Assembly (NCBI GenBank): GCA_001275005.1
Contig: JWZX01003217.1
Coordinates: 1-54,972 of the forward strand
Reading direction: 5' to 3'
DNA: 54,972 nt
Origin: Chrysochromulina tobinii
Taxonomy: Eukaryota
In this document: positions 6,657-39,300 of the stretch, one piece after another
Numbering within the stretch: position 1 is the stretch's first letter
How the letters are laid out: each line of letters starts with the position of its first letter
Notes under the pieces: model-generated
What the model saw: only the letters and a program-made list of their open reading frames with translations
Told to the model about the DNA's origin: nothing
Database searches by the model: none
Made by a program: the position numbers and the translations under genes

Positions 6657-9600
6657 TCACCGACCACGCCCAGGCCACTTAAGCGGCTCGAGCACCGCGG
6701 CCTTGACTAGCTGCTGTGTCTCCTGCTGCTGCCGCTGCTGGTCCGGTGCGGGTGCAGCGCTCACGGGTGCAGCGTTCACCGGTGCGGCGCTCCCCCTCAC
6801 GGGTGCGATGCGCGTGGGATCGAGATCTGCGGGGGATCTGCGGGAGATCTGCGTGGGATCGAGATCTGCGCGCGCCTGCCGGTAGCCCACCTGGGCCGCG
6901 TAGGGGTCGAGGCCGGGCTGGAGGCGAGCAGCAGCAGCGCGACGGTACTCGGCCTCGCGCCGATACTCAGCCTGCTGCCGGACCGCTGCCTGCTCCTGCT
7001 CGAGGCGGAGTATCGCTAGCTGCCTCTCGAAGTGCTCGGCCTCGGCGCGCTCCGCCGCGCTCATGACGCGCGTGGCGCGCTGCACGGCCAGCAGGCTATC
7101 GAGCTGCTCACGCAACCCATCGAGTTGACGCTCCATCACCGGGACACGCGCCGTGTTGAGCGGATCGCGCGCCTCGTCGCCCAACATGGCGCCATGGGTG
7201 GGGCTGTTGAGCGCCGTGATGAGCGCGGATAGCCGCTTGAGCTCCGAGCAGATCTCGTGCAGCGAGATCTCGTGCAGCGTGGCCTGCACGGCGCCCATTG
7301 TCGACTCGAGGGCGCCCACGCGCTCCTCGAGTTCACTGAGCTCCTCGAGCTGCTGCGCATCGTCCGCCGCCGCCGCCGCCGCCGTGCGGCCCATCACGGC
7401 GCCCGGAACAGCGCCCATCACGGCGCCATCACCGTGCGGCGAGGCGGCTGGCCAGCGAGCGCGGGCGAAGACGCCACCTGGCATGCGACGAGTGGCCGCG
7501 GAGCGCGACGCTTCTCGTGCCGCGAGCTTCGACTCCAGTTGGTTAGGGTCGCGAATGCACTTCCGGCCGCAAGACAAGGGGGGAAGTGTCTTGCGGCCGT
7601 TGATGGTCGGAATGGCGCCGTCCCTGGGCACGGGGACGCCCGGGTGAGGAGGAGGTGCAGCCGCAGCGCCCGCGCCGTGCATGCCGCCAAACTCGAGCCG
7701 CGCCTCGAGCATCGCCGAGATCGACTCGAGCTTGTGCGTCACAAGCTGAGCCTCTTCCCGCGACAGCTGGCCGCGCGACGAGAGGCGCCCTGCCTCGCGC
7801 TCCGTGCGCTCCGCGATCGTGCGCTGCATCACGAGGAGCTTTTGGAGCGCGCGCCGCTCGACGGCATTGGCCTCGGGCCGCGTGAAGACGGTGCGCTTGT
7901 CCTGCTCAAAGGGGCGCATGCCGTTGGCCGAGTGCGCGCGGAAGAATCGGCGAGGCGTCTTCGAAATGTCCTCGAGCGACTGCTCACGCACAAGGCGCAG
8001 CCGCGTCTTGAGCTCGGGCGGCCCGGCGGCGGACGTCCCTGTCCTCGGCCCGTCCGCCTTCTCCCCGGAGGCGGCGCGCTGCTGCATCGCCTGTCGAAGG
8101 CGCTGCGCCTCAAGGCTCGCCTGCGCCACGCGCTTCCACGACGCACGGAGACGCGGCCACGTCATCACAAAGTCGATGGGCAGCACGAGCAGGATGAAGG
8201 GCGCGGGGATCGGGTGCTGGAGCAAGAAGACGGCCACCGACAGCGCCTTGTTCATATTCATGTGCTCACGCGACGCGTCGACGACCTCCGAGTAGCGTGC
8301 GTTGAACATGGCGATCAGCAAGTTGACGAAGAGGATGAGGACGAGCAGGCAGTAGAGCCACAGGAAGAAGGGCGCGACCAGGGCGCTGCCCGGGGAGCCG
8401 GCGATCTCGGCCGGGTTGAAGTAGCCAAAGGTAGCCCAAAAGGGGGCGAAGAAGGGCCCCGCGGCTGATACATCGAGCTCCTGGTTGAACCAAGGGTGGA
8501 GCGGACCCGCGCCATGCTCGGACTGGTAGTGGGGCAGCAGCAGGTTGAGCGCGACGCCGAAGCCCGATCCGATCACGATGACGAGCGGCAGCCAGAAGCG
8601 CAGATCGTACGCCATGCGAGAGGCGGCGATGATCAGCGCGCCGAGCGTCTCCGAGACGGAGAAGATCTCGGTCAGGCTGAAGAAGATGGGGAGCGCGGCG
8701 ATCGCGAGCAGCGTGCGCAGCACCTCGGTCGCCACCGTCCAACCGCAGTTGCCCGCTGGCGCGCCGTGCTGCCAGCCGCCGCCGTGCTGCAGGAAGTAGT
8801 GCTCGCTCTGCGACTGGCCGGGCAGGCTGTCATGGCGTGCACGGATCCGCCCGTCGGCGCGCAGGTCGAGGAACGCGATCAGATCGGTCGCCTCGGCTGC
8901 GGTCAGAGATGCAAAAGGGTCGCCACGCCGAAACCAGAGAGCGCAAGCGAAGAATGCGAGGAGCGAGACGATCGTGAGCGCATCAACCCACTTGTACACG
9001 CTGTACTTGCGACCCCATCCTTGGACCGTGGCGACGAAGAGGGCGAGCTGGTATGCCTTGGCGACGACCCAGATGAAGAGCACCAGGTGTGCCGTGTACA
9101 GGGGCTGGCAGAGCGGCAGAAAGGAGACCCACACGAAGAGGCCGGTGAACGCGTAGTGTGAGACCATGTCGAGCACGCGCTTGACGAGAGGGATTTGCAG
9201 CAGCCCAACGAGATGCTCGTACCGGTGCACCCGCATCGTGAGCACGTGCCCTTTTGCGGTAGGGTCGAACCCCTGCCGGGTGTGCCGTGCACCTTCCTCG
9301 GCGATGGGCCGGATGGGCCACCGGTATAGATCGTTGAGCTCCGTCCAGATCCACGGCCAGTGGATGGGGAAGAAGAGGAGCTGCCAGATCAGGCCGAGCA
9401 CGAGCGTGAGGGGCGCGCTATGCTTCGTGCGCAGCATGATGCGCCCGCACGCGGCCGAGCGCCCATTCCACATCTCCTCGACGAGCGCCTGGCAGTACCG
9501 ATGCGAGATGAACTTCTTGTTCTCAAGCTCGACCGCGACCTCGAAGAGGGACGAGCGCCGGTGGCGCGTACCCAGCTCGGCCGAGTCGCCCTCTGAGGTG

Positions 9601-12600
9601 AGGAGCAGCTTGCGTGCGGTCTCCTGGTCGGCCAACGTGTCGAGCAGCGCGACGGCGTTCGTCTCGAACCATTTCTCGAGGCTGACGAGCTCGTCCGACT
9701 CGGCCGAGAGGGAGACGCGCAGCTTGCGACAGACCTCCTGGCCGATCAGCGCCGCACGCAGCGGAGACACAGTGCGCTCCCAGATGACCTTGACGAACCT
9801 GGCCGCGCCGCAGCAGATGCCCCACACCAGCAAGTCGAAGGCTCGGACGGTCCTCTGGCGCGCGGCGTAGTACTCGAAGCCCACAATGTGCTGGCGCAGC
9901 ATGAGCACATGCTCCTCGCGCCACGGCGTCGTGTCGGGCAGGTCAAACGGCAGGCGCGCACCCAGAGCCGAGGCGGACATGCCAAGTTCTCCAAAGAGCG
10001 TGGAGAGGCTCACTTCGGACACCTTCGCGCCATACTGCAGCAGCAGGTCCACGATGCGCACGTCGAACGAAGGGTCGGTCACGCGCAGCAGCGCCTCCTG
10101 CAGCGCCTCCTGCACCATCTCCGCACGCGCGGCCGCCGAAGTTCCATACGAGCTCGTATGCATCAGCAGCTGATGGAGCACATCGTACCGCCCCCAGCGC
10201 GCCACCAGCGCGACGCCGAGCGCGTGCCCGCCCTTGCCGCTCACCATGTTACTCGACGCGCGCATGAAATCATTGCACGCAGCCTGAAGCAAGAGGCGCG
10301 ACACCTCCAGCCTGATGAGCTTGACGTCCTCCTCGCTCAGTGCATTGACGTCCTCCTTCAGGGCGAGCGCACGCAGCTTCTCAATGCACTCGTCGACCGA
10401 GTTGCTCCTCTCGAGGGCCACCCAGCGCCCACGCACGAGCACATCGACCCCGAGCTTGCCTCCGAACGAGCCACTGCGGCTCCTGTCGCGCCTGTCGCGC
10501 CCAGGCTCGTCACGCTGTGGTGAGCACGTGCATGCAAGACAGGCCATCAGTGGCAATCAACGCACCTGTCGCGCCCATGCTCGTCACGCCCGCCCCGCTT
10601 GCTCTCATGCTCCGCCGCGTGGCAGCTCAGCCGCAGCTCGAGCGTCGTGCCGAGCGATCGAATCGACAGCTGGCGCATCGTGTCGATAGGCTGGTGGCGC
10701 AGCAGCCGCTGCTTCACTGCTTCACAGGCCCACTGCTGCTGTGACGCGTACAGCGTCAGATTCTCGTCGACGTCGCGCCAGCACACACGACTCTCCACTT
10801 TAGGGCTCTCCTCTTTAGCCGTCATCCGCTGAAGCACCGAGATGCGCATGGATAAACCGCGCCAGTTGATCGCCGACGCCGGTGTCTCCGTCGAGATCCA
10901 TAGCTCGTCCTCCGGCTCGTCGTCGTCCGGCTCCTCGTCCGAGTTGGTCGGACCGCCTGTGCGAGCGGCAGCCCCCTTTCGAGAGCTCATCGAGCGCAAG
11001 GTCCTGCCCATGAACGATCTGGCGGACCTGATGCCCATGAACGATCTGGCGGACCGTGACTCGCTCCCCGTGTGTGAGTACGACTGCAGGCGAATCTTGG
11101 AGGAGAGCTCTCGCGACATGTGGAAGTGGACTGCGGTCGTCTCGATCCACGCGTGGTCCGTGTTGCGTGGGTCGTCCACGTAGCCGCGGTACACAATCCG
11201 CGCATCCTCGCTCGAGAGCTCATCGGGCAGGTTGAAGAGCTCGTCCAGGAGCAGGCGCGTCCGATCCCGCGGCTGGCCACGGTAGTTCGCTGCGCGCTGC
11301 GCGAGGCCGGCTTGCGGCTCAAAGGCCTGGCGCAGCGCCTGCGCCAGCGTCTCGCCCTCGCGGATCAGCCGCCCTGGGAGCGATCGGCCATGCCGCGCGC
11401 TGTGGTGAGCACTTGCATGCAAGACAGGTCATCAGTGGCAATCAACGCACCTGGCAGCGACCACTCATCGGAGCCATCAGTACGCTTGACGACCACCACC
11501 TGCAGCTGGTTCGTCGTTGGGTGTAGCCGCGTGACGATCGGGTCGGCCGCGTGGTTGGGTCCCCACTTGCCCAGCAGCCCGCGGCCCGCGAGCCCCGTCC
11601 GCCCTCGCGGGTTGAGCGGTCGGCCACGCCCACCGTTGGGCTCGAGACTTGCGTTGCCCTCTTCGAACTGGAGGGGCCCCTCGAAGGTGAGCCGGCGCTC
11701 GATCCGCTTGGACGTGAGAGCAAACGTCTCCGCGGAGCGCGGGTCGAGTAGCCGTTTGGCGCTGCCCCTCGGGCTGACGACGGGGCTGGACACCTCCTGT
11801 ATCAAATTCTCCATAGATACATGTCGCTGTCTCGGGTCTTCCGGGTCGGCCCAGCGCTGCTGACGCGTCCGGCTGCGAAAGTTGTCGGTCACAGTCGGGT
11901 CGGTGTAGTCCGCCGGAGCGTATCCAGGGAAGGGCACGGACCAAGGCACCTTCTCGTCGGGCACTTGGACGCGGGCCGGATACCTATCGGGCGCGGGTCG
12001 TACGCGCGCTCGCTCGTGCGGCGCGATCTTCTCCGCCACTCGATCGACAAGCTGCCGGTGGCTCGCGTACAGGTTCGCATACCGGTCCTCGGACAGCGGG
12101 TTGATGTCGAGCCAGATGGCGCGCGTGGCGTCATCGCCTGCGCCGAGCGCGAGCTTGTCTCCTGCGAGGCGAGATTGGGGGCGAGATTAGACGGAGATTG
12201 CAGGCGAGATTGGAGGCGAGATTGGGCCGAGATTGGAGGCGAGAGGCGCACCGATCTCGGGCGGGCAGTGGAAGTGGAATGCGGTCGTCTCGATCCACGC
12301 GTGGTCCGTCGTCCGCGGGTCGTCCACGTAGCCGCGGTACACCACGGTGCCGCCCGAGGCGAAGAGCCTACCGGTCGCCTCTTCAAAGAGTCTCTGCCCT
12401 TCTGGGTCGGGAATGTTGCCCACCTCCGCCCTGAACTCGCGCTGGACCGTCTCTGACACCGTCTCTCCCTCGTCCACCATACCTCCAGGAAGGGCCCACA
12501 CGCCCGGCTGGTCGGCACGCTCGATCGCAACCATCTGCAGCTGGTTCGTCGTTGGGTGTAGCCGCGTGACGATCGGGTCGGCCGCGTGGTTGGGTCCCCA

Positions 12601-14604
12601 CTTGCCCAGCAGCCCGCGGCCCGCGAGCCCCGTCCGTCCTCGCGGGTTGAGCGGCAGTCGCTTCTCATGATCCCAGAGCAGCACGCCTTTCGTCTCGTAT
12701 GTCTTGCGCGAGAGTACCTCGGCGATGAGATCGCTGCTCAGTGGCGCGGGCGGGTCGGCCCACTTAGCCTTCGCATGCGCACGTCGCTCTTCGCGCGTGG
12801 CCCCGTGGTTGCAGAACTTGGTCAGCACCGGGTGCTCGTACGTGGGCGGGTGGTAGCCTCCCGCCGCTGTCCAGTCGGCCTCCCATGGCACAAGACCCTC
12901 GTCCGCAATGGGCAGCCGGCGCACGCCTTCGGGGCAGTCCGCGCCCACGTAACGGTCGCGATCGCGCGCCTTAAGGTGCACGGGCGGCTTGGCGGGTTGC
13001 TCGAGGGAGCCCACTGGCTGCGGAACCTTGACGGCGCGGCGCGCCAGCTTGCGCCGCTCGATGTCAGCGTCAGTGCGCAGCTTGCAGCTGGCGACGACCG
13101 CGTTGAGGATGGAAGTCTCGAGAGACTCGGCTTTGGCCATTGAGAAGACGATCATCAGGTCACGCAACGTGCGCTTGTCGAGCGTGTGCGGCGCGGGCGT
13201 GTGCGAGAGTGAGGGCAGCAGCAGTCGCACCGCCTCCTCCACCTTCTCCCGTGGCACCTTGAGCACGTCCCACTGCTCAAGCTGCTCGTGTAGCAGAGTC
13301 GCCCAAAGCTCGACCGACCCCGGCTCTCGCTCCGGATGCTCCTGAACCTTGAGGGCGAAGTCCGCGAGGGCGCGTGCACAGCCGCGTGACTCGCGCACGA
13401 GCACGCAAGGCGTGTGGTTGCTCCAGGTCGTCAGGATCGTATTGAACGTGCCGCGCCCGCCCTGGACCATGAGGAGCACCCATCAGAGGTCATCAGGGTC
13501 ATCCGAGGTCATCAGAGGAGCGCTTACCTGGATAACGAGGAGCACTGAGGGCACCATGAGCTTCTCGACGAGCCGCCGCTCCACCTGGCCACGTAGCTCG
13601 ATCTCAGCACCCCATGCTGGAGCGCGTGCCCCCGGGTCGTCGACGAGGATGAAGTGCGAGTGGTTCATGTCCAGCGCCGACGACGCGCTCGAGTTCTTGA
13701 TCCGCTTGATGTACGGCAGCAGTGGCGGCGGCAGGCGCTCCTCGGGCTTCGCCTGCCGCAGGCTCTCCTGGTTCGTCACGCACCCGAGCGGGGCGATGCC
13801 GATGAGCGGGGTGGCCCATGCGTGTCCCTCGGCGCGCACGTTGGTAGTGGTCCGACTGCGCAACGCGCGCCCAACCAGCTCCATCACGCCCGTGTCCATG
13901 CCGCCCGTGATTACCCACGCGCGCGTCGAGGACGCCGCCGAGTCGATGCCGTCGCGCAGCATATTCTCAAGTCGTGGCTCAAGGTCCATCGCCTGCGCTG
14001 AGCCGCTTACAGTGAGGAGCACGGATGGCACCTGGATGCGCCAGTAAGACAGTAACAGCTTGACAATTGCATCCGCATCCGTGCGCGTCGACACGCCTGC
14101 GAAGCGTGCAGGCTCGTCCATCAGCTCGTCATCGAAAGAGAAGAAGAGGCGGCCGATCTGGTGGATGCCCGTCGCGTAGAGGTTCCCTACGTCGGCATTG
14201 CTCTCTTGCCAGCGCTCTTCGCGGCGGTCCTCCACCTGTTGCTCGCACTGGCTCGACCAGCACCAGCTCTGTGCCAGCAGTGGCTTGGATTGGCTTAGCG
14301 AGTTGTGCGATGCTGGCGCTGTTCGCGGTGAGCTGCCGGCTGGTGTCGCGTCGCCGGAGCTATCTATGCCGAGCAACCTGCCCCCTCCAGCGGTCTTCTT
14401 ATATGAGCCGTCGGGCAACGCACCGTCGGCGAATCTAGTGTGCGTGTCCATGCCGGACGTGGCGCCATCTTCTCTATCAACGTCTCCCGAATCCCTGCCG
14501 GCTTTACTGATTTCTTTGGCAGGCAGACTCGACAGGTTGAGCGGCAGCGCCGGCGTGTTGGTGCGAGGGTGCACGCGGGACGAGTCCCCTCGCTGCCAAT
14601 GCAT
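6657..14604 (-). CDS. TRPM-like cation channel: SLOG - NUDT9-like x2 - MHR3/4 - six-TM ion-transport domain - coiled coil
   Basis: SLOG motifs AWVITGGMDTGVMELVG, LIGIAPLG, LDMNHSHFILVD and VIQGG. Two copies of PLNPRGRTGLAGRGLLGKWGPNHAADPIVTR...YRGYVDDPR.TDHAWIET. MHR4-like LLVWGI..IWE..PLRAAL..KFISHRYCQALVEEMWNG. S6 motif LFVNLLIAMF. ORFs join in frame via introns 13462-13527, 12162-12251, 11374-11450 and 10492-10565. Start codon and extreme C-terminus are uncertain. Confidence 0.85.
10492..10565 (-). mobile_element. Introner-like intron, copy B (74 nt)
   Basis: Same core with 2 mismatches, followed by a 23-nt copy (1 mismatch) of the upstream exon end that supplies the AG acceptor; alternative in-frame acceptor at 10483. 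Confidence 0.7.
11374..11450 (-). mobile_element. Introner-like intron, copy A (77 nt)
   Basis: Core GTGCGTTGATTGCCACTGATGACCTGTCTTGCATGCAAGTGCTCACCACAGCG is near-identical to the intron at 10492-10565; removal restores SLPG-RLIREGET. Confidence 0.7.
12162..12251 (-). other. GT-AG intron (90 nt) built of a CAATCTCGCC minisatellite
   Basis: G|GTGCGCC...CTCGCAG|GA; removal restores NUDT9 C-terminal LGAGDDA..IWLDI...LYASH. Confidence 0.85.
13462..13527 (-). other. GT-AG intron (66 nt) with CTGATGACC filler repeats; its 3' end copies the upstream exon
   Basis: GTGCTCCTCGTTATCCAG|GTAAGC...GTGCTCCTCATGGTCCAG|GGC; contains an in-frame TGA. Confidence 0.85.
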
Positions 14605-14923
14605 GTAACGCGGCGCTCCGTGTTCCGACACGCTGGGCGCGCTTGCCTGTGCGACGGTTTTACGCAAACACGGTCGTTTTCACGCGTGTCGTCTGACGTG
14701 TGAACGTTCACAGCGGCGACAAGCGGAAGTGTTCTCGCTCGCCTTTATGACATAAAATTCCCTGGAAGTCGCTCCCGCATTAGACGAGCTGCGCCAATTA
14801 CTCTACAAGTATTCAATTAGTTTGATTCCCTGAAAGACGCTACTCGCAATAGGCGAGCCGCGCCTTCTTTTGTATTTCCTGGATGTCGCTCTCGGCAAAC
14901 CAGCGTGATCTGATACCTCTATG

Positions 14924-17617: not shown

Positions 17618-20186
17618 ATGACGTGTATCGATGAGTACACCCTCGAAAAGCGCCTCGGGCAGGGTGCGATGGGCACCGTCCACCTGGTGACGCGCAAGAG
17701 AGACGGGCGGCAGCTCGCCCTCAAGCGTGTCAACTTTGCGGATCTGTCACACGAGGAGCGCAAGCAGACGCTGCTCGAGGTCGCGCTGCTCTCTCGCCTG
17801 CGCCATCCGAATATCATCGAGTACGTCGAACATTTCCATGACGGCGACGATCTATGCATCGTCATGGAGGTCGCACCCGATGACGTGCTCAAGGTGGTGC
17901 GGCGTGCAAAAGCAGCGGGCACGCCGCTGCCCGAGGAGCAGCTGCTGAGCATCCTGTCGCAAGTGGCATCGGCGCTGCACTACGCGCACAGCTGTCGCGT
18001 GCTTCACCGCGATGTAAAACCGGCCAACGTGCTGCTCACGGCGGACGGCACGCCCAAGCTCTCCGACTTCGGCATCAGCTGTACCGTGATGCAACACGAG
18101 CTGTCCCTCGGGCGCGCGCTGGTGAAGCGTGCGGACGGCGTGCGCGAGACGGAGTTCGAGGCGGCGGCAGACATCCGAGTGGAGCTCAAGGGCACGCCCG
18201 CATACATGGCGCCCGAGCTCTTCAACCACAAGATGGAGATGAACACCACGTACTCGGCCGCATCGGACGTGTGGGCGCTCGGCGTCATGATGTTCGAGCT
18301 CATGCTGTTTCGTCTGCCGTATGAGGGCGCGTCGATGATGTCGATCGTGTACAAGCTCGTCAACAACCCGTCGCAGAACGCCCTCACCGACGCGCGCGGC
18401 GCGCACGGCCGCGGCCACACCCAGTACTCCCAGGCCATGTACGCGTGCGTCGAGGCGATGCTGCATAAGCGGCCGCAGCAGCGCGCGACGCTGCCAGAGC
18501 TACTTTCGCGCCAGGTGCTGCTGCATCATGCGCGCGGCGGCGGAGCGCCCAAGCGCTTCATCGACCTGCTCGAGGAGGGCGCTGCCCAGATGAGCGGCCG
18601 GCTACCCGACGTATACTCGTTTGGACGCGGTGGTACTCGCCCTCGCCTGCGCGACGACTTGATGGGTCTCCAGATTCGGCAAGTAGCCTGCGGCGCGGCG
18701 CACTGCGCGGTGGTCGCCGTCTCGGGTGAGGTGTTCACTTGGGGGAGGAACGAGTGCGGCCAGCTTGGCCACGGCGACAGGAAGCAGCTCAGCCTACGGA
18801 GGCGCGTGCTTTTCGCCGAGGAGGTCGAGGGCGCCGTCGTGGTGCGCGGCGTCGCGTGCGGCTTCGCGCATGCAAGTGCTCACCACGGCGTCCTATTCCC
18901 CACAGGTGCGCGGCGTCGCGTGCGGCTTTGCGCACACGATTGCGATCGCCCAGCACGGGCGGCGCCTGTACGCGTGGGGCAGCGACAAGCACGGGCAGCT
19001 CGGGCTGGGGAGTGGCGCCTTTTGCCGCGCGGACGTGGGTCTGCAGGTCGCGATCCACGAGGGCGAGCTAAGCATTGAAGGCGTGTGGCGGCCGATTCAC
19101 TGGGGCACGCTCCAACCGACCGACGTGGCGCGAGCGCGAGTGATCGCTGTCGAGGAGGGCTTCGGAGGCGCGGTGACCCTGAGCGCGCTATCCGAGGAAG
19201 GCGAGAGCACGGAGATCGAGATCGAGATCGGCAATCCACGGCTGATGGGTTTGCGTGATCCGATGGATTGCGTGCTCACGCCGACGGCGCTGCGGACTGT
19301 CCTCGATGACGTGGCAGAGGCGTGGGCCGTCGTGGCGTGCGGCGATCGGCACTCGGCCGCCATCACCACTGCGGGATCCGCGTACGCATGGGGCAGCGCC
19401 GATGACGGACGGCTCGGGGTGCTCCTTGTCCCAGGGGAGAGCCGCGTGCTGGCCCCTCGGAAGCTGCCACTCTCGCTGCGAGTGCCCGAGACAGCGCGCG
19501 AGCTCGAGGGCCACTTGGAGGGCCACTTGGCGATGGTGGACTGCGGCGACGAGTTCACGTGCTACGTGGACGAGGCGGGCCGGCTGTGGGGTTGCGGCGC
19601 CAACTACGACGGGCAGCTTGGCATCGACGATCCGGACGTGGGGGAGGTTGGCACGCCGATGCGGCTGATTCCCTGGGGTCCCACTGACCCGGACGACGTG
19701 GGGATTGACTTCATTGCGTGCGGCGCGACGCACGTGGCGGCGGCCGATACGTTGGGGAGGCTCTGGCTGTGGGGCGGGCGGTTCGGCATGCCGCCGACGA
19801 AGGTTCGCTTGCCAGGCCGTTACGAGGACCCAGCTGACGAGAACGCCCTGGGCAGCCCTTGCGCGCTGGTCGCGTGCGGCGCGGACCTCGTCTTCACCGT
19901 GACGGACGACGGCGACGCCTTCACCTGGGGCGAGGGCAGCCACGGCCGCCTCGGCCTCGACGACGGCGCCCAATCTCATGAGGCGCCGCAAAGTCTTGCG
20001 TCACTCTCGGCGCCGCCAGTGAGGGTGCTGATGGTCGCGTGCAGCAAATCGGTCGCCAGCGCGGACGAGGGCCCGGCGGTGCTCGTGCTAGGCGAGCCCC
20101 ACGAAAGCGGCGCCCTCCACGATCAGTTCAAGCGCTTCCTACTCGCCGACAATGACCAGCGATGGGACGGGCGTCCCGCCCGTTGA
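17618..20186 (+). CDS. NIMA-related kinase with RCC1 repeats (NEK8/NEK9-like)
   Basis: LGQGAMG, ALK, LRHPNIIEY, HRDVKPANVLL, DFG, GTPAYMAPE, SDVWALG; RCC1 repeats VACG..H, WG.N..GQLG. Two ORFs joined by intron 18842-18905. Confidence 0.9.
18842..18905 (+). mobile_element. Intron (64 nt) sharing the GCATGCAAGTGCTCACCAC core; its 5' half copies the downstream exon
   Basis: GTGCGCGGCGTCGCGTGCGGCTT(C/T)GCGCA occurs at 18842 and again at 18906; ends ...CCCCACAG; removal joins the two ORFs in frame. Confidence 0.7.
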
Positions 20187-36317: not shown

Positions 36318-39300
36318 ATGTCGCTTGTCACGGGGAGCATCAAGTTCTTCAGCGCCGACAAGGGCTATGGGTTTATCCTGCCTGACGACAGCTCTGGTGA
36401 CGTCTTCTTTCACCGCCACTCGCTTGCTGATCCAGGTTTGACATGATGCTCATTCCCCTTGGCCCTTTCCCGGACCTCGCTTCACCTTACGGACGGCTGG
36501 GTTCAGCGTTAGGCGACGGCCCGTGCGGGCTGTTTAACTTCGACTTTGCTTCGTTCTTGCCTTCTCAGGGGACTTCCAACTCTGTGTAGCTGGCGCTCGG
36601 GTGGAGTTTGAGTTCGAGTTTACAGACAACAAGCGGAAGGCGCCACGCGTCTTTCTCACCGATAAACCAGCGGGATATGGTTCTGTCACCGCCGTCGAAT
36701 CGTCAACTTTGCGCCCACGCGACTCACGAGGTGGCCCTTTGCTCTTCACTTTCCTTCCTCGTGTCCCCTTGCTCCACGCTCTGCAACTCGCTATGCCTCC
36801 TTAGCTTGCGCTTCCCTCTCCTCTCTCGTTACCACTACAGGAGGCAGCTCCGGCAGCTCTGCTCTCGATGGCGGCCGCGGCACTCGTGAGCGCGACCCTT
36901 CGTACGACTGGCCACCTCCCAGCTACTACGATCGGCCACCGACTGGCGACCGCCGCGCAGACCGCGAGCTCGATGCTCCCAGCTACTACGATCGGCCACC
37001 CCCAAGCGATCGACACCGCGAGCTCGGTCCGTCCAGCTACTACGATCGGCCACCGCCAAGCGATCGACACCGCGAGCTCGATGCTCCCAGCTACTACGAT
37101 CGGCCACCGCCATGCGATCGACACCGCGAGCTCGATGCTCCCAGCTACTATGATCGGCCACCGCCAAGCGATCGACACCGCGAGCTCGATCTGGGTCCGC
37201 CGTCCAGGGGCGGTGGAAGCTTCGGCTACCGGCGGGCCGAGCGCCCGATAGAGCGCCATGCCGAGCGCCCGATGGAGCGCCCGATAGAGCGCTATGCCGA
37301 GCGCCCAATAGAGCGCTATGCAGCGGGAGTCGAGGCAGGCATCAACAGCAGTCTTGCCTGCATGCTTGCAGGGGAATCGCGCCCCCATGACGGTCTTGCC
37401 GGTCTTGCCGTCCGTGCAAGCAATGCAGGGGAGTCGCGCCCCCATGACGGCGCGATGCTGGCCGACGCAGCCGCCAGCGTGGGCGTAGACAGTGGTGTCG
37501 ATCGTGAGAGCGGCGCACTTCTTGGCCTCGGTGGGGATTTTCGGCGCGAGGACGAGGAGGGCCAGATGCAATCGGATGCAATCAGATGCAATCAGACGAG
37601 GAGGGTCAGATGGCAATCAGACGAGGAGGGCCAGATGCAATCTGATGCAATCAGATGCAATCAGATGCAATCAGACGAGGAGGGCCAGGTGCAATCAGAT
37701 TCGATCAGATGCAATCAGATGCAATCAGACGAGGAGGGCCAGATTCGTGAAAGCGGTGCCAGTGGCGAGGGCCCGGCCGGCCAGGCAGTGGGCTCACTTG
37801 TGCCTGCCTCCCCCGTCGAGCACGTTGAGCCGTTCGATGAAGACGACGAGGGCGAGCAAGAGCGCAACCCGCGCAAGCGTTGGCGTGAGTCTGAGAGGCC
37901 TCTCTACGAGGACGACTCGGCTCGTGTGAATGTGAATGTGAATGAGAGGCCTCTCTACGAGGACGACTCGGCTCGTGTGCACGCGAGTGCCGCGGTGCCG
38001 ACGGGAGCGTTGCCCGCAGCGGCCGCCGAGAGGTGGGCATCGGGCGAGGCGTCGTCCTGGGCATCGGGCGAGGCCGCGCAGGCGCCGACGCCAGCGGCGC
38101 CCGAGATCAAGGTGCGAGTCTACCTGCCCGGCTGCGACACGCGCATCGACGTGCGTCTGTCGCTCACGGTGCAGCAAGTCCTCCGATGGGAGCAAACCAA
38201 GCGGCGCACGGAGGCGGAGGCCAAGAAGGTCAAGTACAATCCGAGCGAGGTGGCGGCCGCCTTCGTTGAGCATGTGCCGATGCCCCTCTCGCGTACCTTT
38301 GCTGAGCTCACCGAGGGCTCCTCCACAGGGTCCTCCACAGGGCCAGTCAAGGCCTTATGGGAGCTCAGGATCGAGCCCATCCCAATTGCCTCGCCTTGGG
38401 GCATCGAGGTGTGCCGTCGCACCCTGCTGCTTGCCCTCGCTGTGGCGGCCGCAAAGGTGCGGGGCGCGAGCGCGCCCACGGCGGCGCCCAACCGGCTTGG
38501 CGTGCTCGCGCTCAAAGCGGTGACCGCCAATGGCTTCTACCTCTCGCTCTGGCCGCCGCCCCAGCGCGAGAGTGAGCTGCGCAATCTCGCGACCGAGCTG
38601 CGCACCGCGCTCGGCGAGGTGATCAGCACTGAGATCCACACACGCACGCGCGTCCTGCTCGGCCCCGAGGCGCAGGCAAGTTTCCACAGGGCGGGGCTGC
38701 AGCTGGCTGAGCATATGGGCTCGCACGTCGGCGGCGCCTGCGCTTGTGTGCGACGTAGCGGAGGATCAGCTGCTGCTTGCGCATGGCTCGTACACCGCCT
38801 TCGCTCTCCCGTATACTTCTGACCTGCGTGGCTCGCACCTCGACGTGCACCCGGTCGCCTCGAGAGGTCTCTTCATCCACTTTGCGCCCCCTTCGCTCAC
38901 GCTGCTCCCCTTCGGTGCCCTCGAGCAGCGCGCGCTGCTCATCGCCATTGGGGAGATCGACGACCAGTCGCGCCTGTTGCAGGCGACGAGCGCTGCCAAG
39001 CTCAACGAGCTCGTCGACGCGGGCGAGCGCGCATGCAAGCGTCACATTGAGCTTGCCGAGGCGCATCTGGCGCGCCGGCTGAGTGGCTTCGCCGAACGCG
39101 TCTTTTCCCATCGGCCGCGGCTGCTGCTCATCTCGGTGCCTCCGTACGGCGGCCTCGAGTGGCTCGCCCATGCGCTTGAGCTGCAGCTGCGCGTGCGCGA
39201 GCTGCGTGGCGTGTGCATCGACGCCGCGCACTGGGCCAAGCCCGCGGGCGGCCTACGCGTCGCCGACCTGCGCACCGACCTCGCTACACTCTTCGGGAGC

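Follow-up and report, generated by a model that had tools for sequence, protein, structure and literature searches.

Near-identical introns between long exon duplications: an introner-like family in Chrysochromulina tobinii

Introners are defined as at least four similar introns in non-paralogous genes (Gozashti 2022, PMC9860276), and a published introner rule has the similarity start no more than 10 intronic bases from both intron ends. The introners of Chrysochromulina sp. marine MAGs carry a 4-bp duplication (Gozashti et al. 2022, PMC9860276, Fig. 2C). In the 15 haptophyte rows of a 2025 survey, the duplications that have been measured are 2–5 nt long, and 10-bp terminal direct repeats are noted once. 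In Daphnia pulex, neointrons connected with staggered double-strand breaks have exon repeats of 4–12 bp (Li et al. 2014, PMC4202315). Replitron-1 and Replitron-N1 of Chlamydomonas reinhardtii are 0.9–4 kb long and have a fixed left end as well as direct terminal repeats (Craig 2023, PMC10288648), and both the near-identical intron pairs within one gene of Oikopleura dioica and the introner elements of Micromonas are ascribed to reverse splicing (PMC3879977, as far as its accessible text goes). In the literature searched, in which subscription journals were thinly covered, we found no repeated intron family with long variable exon duplications and no Replitron-derived intron.

The DNA analysed here (the window) is a stretch of 54,972 nt from C. 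tobinii, in which one predicted gene carries two near-identical introns. The host protein matches SLOG-in-TRPM and NUDIX, with a weak TRPM2-like match under the cut-off. Two full-length homologs share about 30% identity with it, and for a neighbouring gene the best named relative comes from Prymnesium parvum (54%), which makes a prymnesiophyte haptophyte the likely host. We also observed that the two NUDT9/NUDIX-like repeats stand between the SLOG domain and the membrane region, a layout common to two distant homologs. The features of the gene are as follows.

6657..14619, minus strand: predicted TRPM-like channel (the host gene) that carries a SLOG domain, a pair of NUDT9/NUDIX-like repeats and a membrane region; putative start
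10492..10565, minus strand: intron 1, 74 nt, GT..AG; RNA contig skip and frame kept
10513..10565, minus strand: shared core of intron 1, 53 nt, with donor, palindrome region, putative branch motif and unused proximal AG
10492..10515, minus strand: exon-end copy within intron 1, providing the used AG; 3-nt microhomology overlap with the core end
10566..10589, minus strand: duplicated exon end, source of the copy in intron 1
11374..11450, minus strand: intron 2, 77 nt, GT..AG, within the second NUDIX-like box; contig arithmetic, frame and homolog collinearity
11398..11450, minus strand: shared core of intron 2, 53 nt
11374..11397, minus strand: tail of intron 2, 24 nt; its last 10 nt resemble exon end 11451–11460 with 1 mismatch
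11412..11423, no strand: perfect 12-nt palindrome of the core, disrupted by one change in intron 1
12162..12251, minus strand: fourth intron (90 nt) with 12-nt units in tandem; joined in all 3 RNA runs, joint absent from the DNA run
12485..12654, minus strand: first NUDIX-like repeat, 87% identity over 170 nt to 11450–11619; no intron at the position of intron 2
13462..13527, minus strand: third intron, with another, satellite-like core; RNA skip in X19 record 25

The positions of introns 1 and 2 and their common 5' core of about 53 nt with 2 mismatches are exactly as an earlier note, made from the sequence alone, had claimed: the first 51 nt contain the 2 mismatches and are followed by a CG common to both, and the last 21–24 nt show no relation between the two introns on sequence comparison. 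A 19-mer core probe found 3 matches in the window at up to 3 mismatches, compared with 0.02 expected. The last 23–24 nt of intron 1 repeat the upstream exon end but for 1 mismatch, and the direct repeat crosses the junction (29 nt, 2 mismatches). The same was claimed of intron 2, whose match of 10 nt with 1 mismatch (score 7, cross-pair median 6) is, taken alone, within chance; a source for the remaining tail of intron 2 was not found in 298,551 nt of family loci plus the window. As also claimed, neither intron has terminal inverted repeats; folding gave no hairpin better than shuffles (z +1.0 to +2.5) and no stable hairpin from the 12-nt palindrome, and inspection of the aligned core by eye showed no short direct terminal repeats at either end. 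Rfam gave no match at E up to 1 in window 10300–11700, and the core's putative branch motif is presumed from a CTRAC-type consensus.

Splicing of intron 1 is seen directly, in an RNA contig (X19 record 23) that joins 10490 to 10565, a 74-nt skip matching the intron with a 1-nt ambiguity. The junction of intron 2 is deduced from contig arithmetic and protein alignment: contig X14 record 11 breaks off at 11372, and its 80 leftover letters equal 11450–11529 in length, which implies a 77-nt skip, and the homologs P0001 and P0002 align across the junction, gap-free there. The RNA check that had been proposed thus came out as predicted for intron 1, and for intron 2 by way of arithmetic, frame and protein alignment, the RNA evidence consisting of contigs, where rare forms drop out. 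Runs X20 and X21, which contain almost none of the window's sequence words, were left out. Among the acceptor pairs tried, the distal AGs alone (77 nt with 74 or 83 nt) yield a long frame of 2,571 or 2,568 aa, while any combination with the core's own CACAG gives at most 1,560 aa. CACAG was ruled out as acceptor by frame and RNA contig, and the 83-nt acceptor of intron 1, although in frame, by the RNA contig with its 74 nt. A spacing of about 5 nt to the putative branch point is the likely reason why the proximal AG of the core is passed over. Elsewhere in the gene, the end of the third intron looks by eye like a diverged duplicate of the exon end upstream of it, and no exon copy was seen at the fourth.

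The core is not confined to this gene. When metagenome contigs were scanned for the core by means of a 34-nt pattern, at least 123 loci and at least 135 matches came up, and among the matches listed the core occurs as 81 units in at least 60 unrelated neighbourhoods. Over the 34 nt, 70 of these units lie within one change of the consensus, a count subject to bias from the search pattern. The hosts include unrelated reading frames, and the splicing of the other members was judged from frame alone in eight of them. The exon-duplicate-flanked introns are therefore an intron family at about 60 unrelated sites, as the earlier note had supposed in calling them introner-like, and the pair in the host gene belongs to this polymorphic and probably young family. 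One locus (L048) is identical to window 9902–12935, and Chao1, which is an estimate, puts about 56 exact-pattern sites in the window's strain on the basis of 80 listed loci from its assemblies; in the matches listed, 19 of 60 neighbourhoods occur in both window-strain and other assemblies and 14 of 60 in other assemblies only. Viral contigs contained 0 matches to the core. The summed depth of DNA-run contigs at 11424 (58,806, compared with about 40) was rejected as a measure of copy number: where short contigs overlap, one copy is counted repeatedly. As a side observation, L024:585–1060 is a tandem array of some ten diverged core units with a period of 45–48 nt.

With at least four similar introns in non-paralogous genes and spliced copies (intron 1 seen in an RNA contig, intron 2 inferred), the family agrees with the definition of introners. 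It falls outside the 10-base rule on end similarity, which the tail subgroups alone would pass. We consider it introner-like in its working and a variant of known intron-gain routes, in which the enzyme and the template are putative. As in the MAG introners, whose host group is likely related to the present host, the introns are short and repeated, have no terminal inverted repeats, bring their own 5' site and take the 3' site from a duplication; in contrast to their published description, the last 20–30 nt are peculiar to each locus or have been taken over from another site, and the repeats are mostly 10–32 nt instead of 4 bp, with mirror layouts alongside (PMC9860276).

A direct repeat between the left flank and the post-core sequence with a score of at least 10 was found at 50 of the 62 listed sites (61 from the metagenome scan plus intron 1 of the window), compared with 5.2% of 600 cross-pairs, and also at 34 of the 41 listed sites that have no second core-like sequence nearby. 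The repeat lengths are continuous, mostly 10–32 nt, a single 33-nt match (L011) being a misalignment; the long and variable duplications that had been suspected are thus confirmed on measured lengths. Like the Daphnia neointrons, these introns are inserts between direct repeats of the adjacent exon end and show presence/absence polymorphism, so the family has the features of neointrons of the break-repair type; unlike them, they have longer repeats, with a recurring intron core as the filler, whereas the source of the Daphnia inserts is mostly unknown (PMC4202315, accessible text).

Our preferred reading, to which we would give a probability of roughly one half, is that the family spreads by microhomology-guided repair of staggered breaks, templated by existing introns and filtered by splicing. 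After a staggered DNA break, the broken end would anneal to a donor intron through 2–20 matching bases, the donor often being an intron close by or an intron with a tail that looks like the target. The repair strand would then switch template at short homology, copy part of the intron and return between both ends, leaving a target duplication of 10–40 nt and a copy that retains a variable piece of the donor tail. A copy in an exon would survive only where GT and AG hold equivalent places in the two repeat copies, and because of this, the duplicated exon would provide whichever splice site the copy lacks. Such copying would explain the variable ends, both layouts, the microhomology, the local and inverted copies, and the involvement of unrelated cores. 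The donor annealing, the retention of tails and the survival filter are steps that we infer, and the break, the enzyme and the intermediate are putative, which counts against this reading.

The ends of the copies bear on two other explanations. Among the 40 listed repeats that abut the core, 28 belong to copies with a full GT head after AG and 12 to copies with a shortened head, in which the repeat often covers the AG-GT or AG-GC of the target, and all 28 abutting full-head copies begin exactly at the GT following AG. L012 and L061 follow AA instead of AG, and four or five complete GT..AG units, including L012, L041, L061 and L066, have little or no repeat. Break repair is less at ease with these few complete units, which fit RNA-defined ends or older introns better, and the exact GT starts would also be expected of an element with precise ends. 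One such element would be a non-autonomous HUH element of the Replitron type, which we regard as distinctly unlikely. Insertion after RG (28 of 28 after AG, which splicing selection predicts likewise), a variable right end that stems from sequence lying downstream of the parent, and a variable duplication are all found in class A copies and match Replitron-1 closely, as does the 12-nt palindrome near the right end of the core (PMC10288648, accessible parts). Against this, the left end is often truncated (12 of 40), the core has no short direct terminal repeat, and it is without a stable hairpin. Replitrons are not described as introns in those parts of Craig 2023, where such signatures are termed possibly non-canonical, and they differ from the present units of 50–90 nt, which vary at both ends and lack a terminal repeat (PMC10288648).

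The same ends may also point to RNA. We consider it unlikely, though less so than a Replitron, that the template is the excised intron RNA (linear, lariat or circle), whose 3' part would pair with a nicked target and be copied on the spot, in the manner of non-LTR retroposition, by a borrowed reverse transcriptase, with the captured exon tail guiding the priming. Target-primed reverse transcription typically leaves long duplications of variable length, 5' truncation and microhomology. Class A copies begin at the natural GT and mirror-class copies finish at the natural AG, a few seamless GT..AG units occur, a circular template accords with the head-to-tail AG-GT dimers, of which L001 is one, and local clustering could arise from repair in cis. 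On the other side, splicing selection would leave equally exact ends, the tandem units vary among alleles, as repeat slippage predicts, and neither poly(A) nor a fixed 3' end was seen. SINE-like non-LTR retroposons have a fixed 3' end with a poly(A) or simple-repeat tail and an origin from tRNA, 7SL or 5S RNA; the variable 3' ends, the missing A-tail and the missing Rfam match of the present family speak against that class. An RNA template would explain the repeat-free units, the exact ends and the distant matched targets, and it is not separable here from break repair.

In the mirror class, the 3' half of the core is kept with its own acceptor, and the GT donor comes from the duplicated downstream exon. 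Direct repeats of 10–39 nt were found at 16 of the 18 listed non-tandem units, compared with 4.3% of 300 null comparisons, 28 of 46 units having been set aside because another core lies within 110 nt. The window contains one example, supported by frame, since taking it out gives an 834-aa kinase/RCC1 frame.

18842..18905, plus strand: mirror-class intron, 64 nt; the start of the downstream exon, copied over 24 nt, supplies the GT donor

The acceptor taken from a duplicated exon, which the earlier note had put forward for the family, is thus present as one of at least three layouts, and copies are variably truncated at both ends. The polarity of the mirror class is opposite to that expected of a Replitron-type element, and the continuous duplication lengths of about 10–32 and 10–39 nt, together with the lack of terminal inverted repeats, speak against introners of the TIR DNA transposon or MITE type.

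Long duplications also occur at unrelated cores. A local-repeat search in 200 kb gave 49 cases around the family core, 41 around an intron core of satellite-like type and a further 41; in the latter two groups, plain tandem arrays are frequent, and about 20 satellite cases resemble the family layout by eye. The satellite-core introns are a second family with a like layout. That unrelated cores act alike is at odds with a Replitron-type element, and the long duplications at satellite-type cores point to a general host process. At L028:450, L028:1761, L042:2070, L047:893, L072:2880 and L074:1046, exon duplications of 25–40 nt enclose introns with a 10-nt satellite core. In the window, we also noted 27-nt and 37-nt direct repeats around short filler at 37367–37450 and 37892–37979 (plus strand), satellite units with a 24-nt repeat at 37551–37744, and, in the start region, direct repeats 446–702 / 1922–2178 (257 nt, 90%) and 2–154 / 1745–1897 (153 nt, 93%).

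Among 22 aligned allele pairs, the presence/absence comparison that had been suggested gave empty alleles with a single repeat copy: 79 nt are absent from L023 relative to L022 and 66 nt from L021 relative to L086, one repeat copy being left in each, and a third empty/filled pair (L040 and L031, 82 nt) has a satellite core. The empty and filled alleles diverge by about 1–4%. The difference between L022 and L023 could be a gain or a loss, and it counts against break repair that empty alleles could be losses by recombination between repeats. At L086, around 300–366 (L021 around 2086), a 66-nt core stands antisense and in frame within a coding exon of a 986-aa frame, about 590 nt from another core copy; the insertion has a 24–27-nt duplication, is cut short at both ends, has no splice sites and reads as 22 stop-free codons. 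Because it is antisense, in the coding frame and without splice sites, it is a gain, and splice sites are not required for insertion. This antisense copy and the long duplications also distinguish the family from the Micromonas elements, described as sense-only in the accessible text (PMC3879977).

The alleles also bear on the possibility that the intron positions are old, that the core spread among them by gene conversion, and that the exon copies grew later by slippage. Repeat length differs between alleles of one site (L063, L103 and L116), the number of tandem units differs in 7 of the 22 pairs, some units have no repeat, and neighbouring introns share variants, all as this explanation would have it. 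We nevertheless hold it to be very unlikely as a whole, given the empty alleles at so little divergence, the insertion at L086 into coding DNA, where there is no intron to convert, and the sister NUDIX repeat of the host gene, which lacks intron 2. Since repeat length varies among alleles of one site, some growth or loss of repeats postdates insertion, and remodelling of old introns likely contributes to the repeat-length differences.

Further traces point to copying from one site to another. The post-core sequence shares at least 10 nt with an unrelated site at 25 of the 62 listed sites, whereas 200 shuffles gave a mean of 0.6 and a maximum of 6; the tails of L001, L010 and L063, for instance, are the exon end of the gene at L069, which we take from a motif to be ABC-transporter-like. 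Left flanks match the tails of other members of the same tail group in 46% of 128 pairs, compared with 5.6% of 1,397, these pairs not being independent. Because flanks resemble the tails of other members, many apparent duplications are in part an inherited tail that matches the new target; the earlier reading of the repeats as target-site duplications accordingly keeps the long repeats and loses part of many of them. Under break repair, the tail-matched targets on different contigs would need an efficient long-range search by short homology. Right-junction microhomology averages 2.0 nt, compared with 0.53 by chance, at nine sites with the repeat directly after the core (13 rows minus L005 and L018, with the core cut short, and L014 and L118, with tandem units). 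In a tail subgroup (L008, L016, L037, L054, L062, L089 and L109), we observed apparent GC donors, and most targets share the last six bases.

These tails also suggest a more tentative idea, which we think unlikely: a selfish intron that needs no transposase, whose host-exon tail, as intron RNA or DNA circle, pairs with look-alike exons and so chooses and primes the next insertion. If true, intron gain would walk through sequence space, guided by former host exons.

Copying is also local. In the matches listed, a second non-tandem copy occurs in 8 of 56 neighbourhoods (about 145 kb), compared with 0.2–0.7 expected for 80–300 copies in 59 Mb, a size taken from C. tobinii. Five of the eight co-located pairs have a minor variant in common, compared with 11% at random (P about 2e-5, the best pair having been picked among the four units of L018), and a sixth pair has a common 13-nt tail. 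Introns 1 and 2 themselves have two rare variants in common (P about 0.001), a G at position 3, found in 8 of 51, and, at position 27, a T found in 4 of 81, and it is likely that intron 1 was copied from intron 2 or the reverse, or both from one close parent. The Oikopleura dioica pairs are likewise near-identical introns in one gene, read as local copying (PMC3879977, accessible text). Local gene conversion, which the earlier note had named as what would overturn its reading if the core were found only at these loci, does not account for a core that extends well beyond them; local copying, with two rare variants shared, is nonetheless part of the process.

How new spliceosomal introns originate has long been debated, and no mechanism has been assigned to about 72% of introner families (PMC12130899). 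C. tobinii is entered with 0 families in the accessible part of a published introner listing; because the published filter drops introns whose similarity ends more than 10 bases from a splice site, introns of this class would be under-counted. The host is apparently in culture, RNA and DNA runs exist and alleles differ, so the mechanism is directly testable. The family unites two routes that are usually kept apart, introners and staggered-break repair, and its tails keep traces that lead from parent to daughter.
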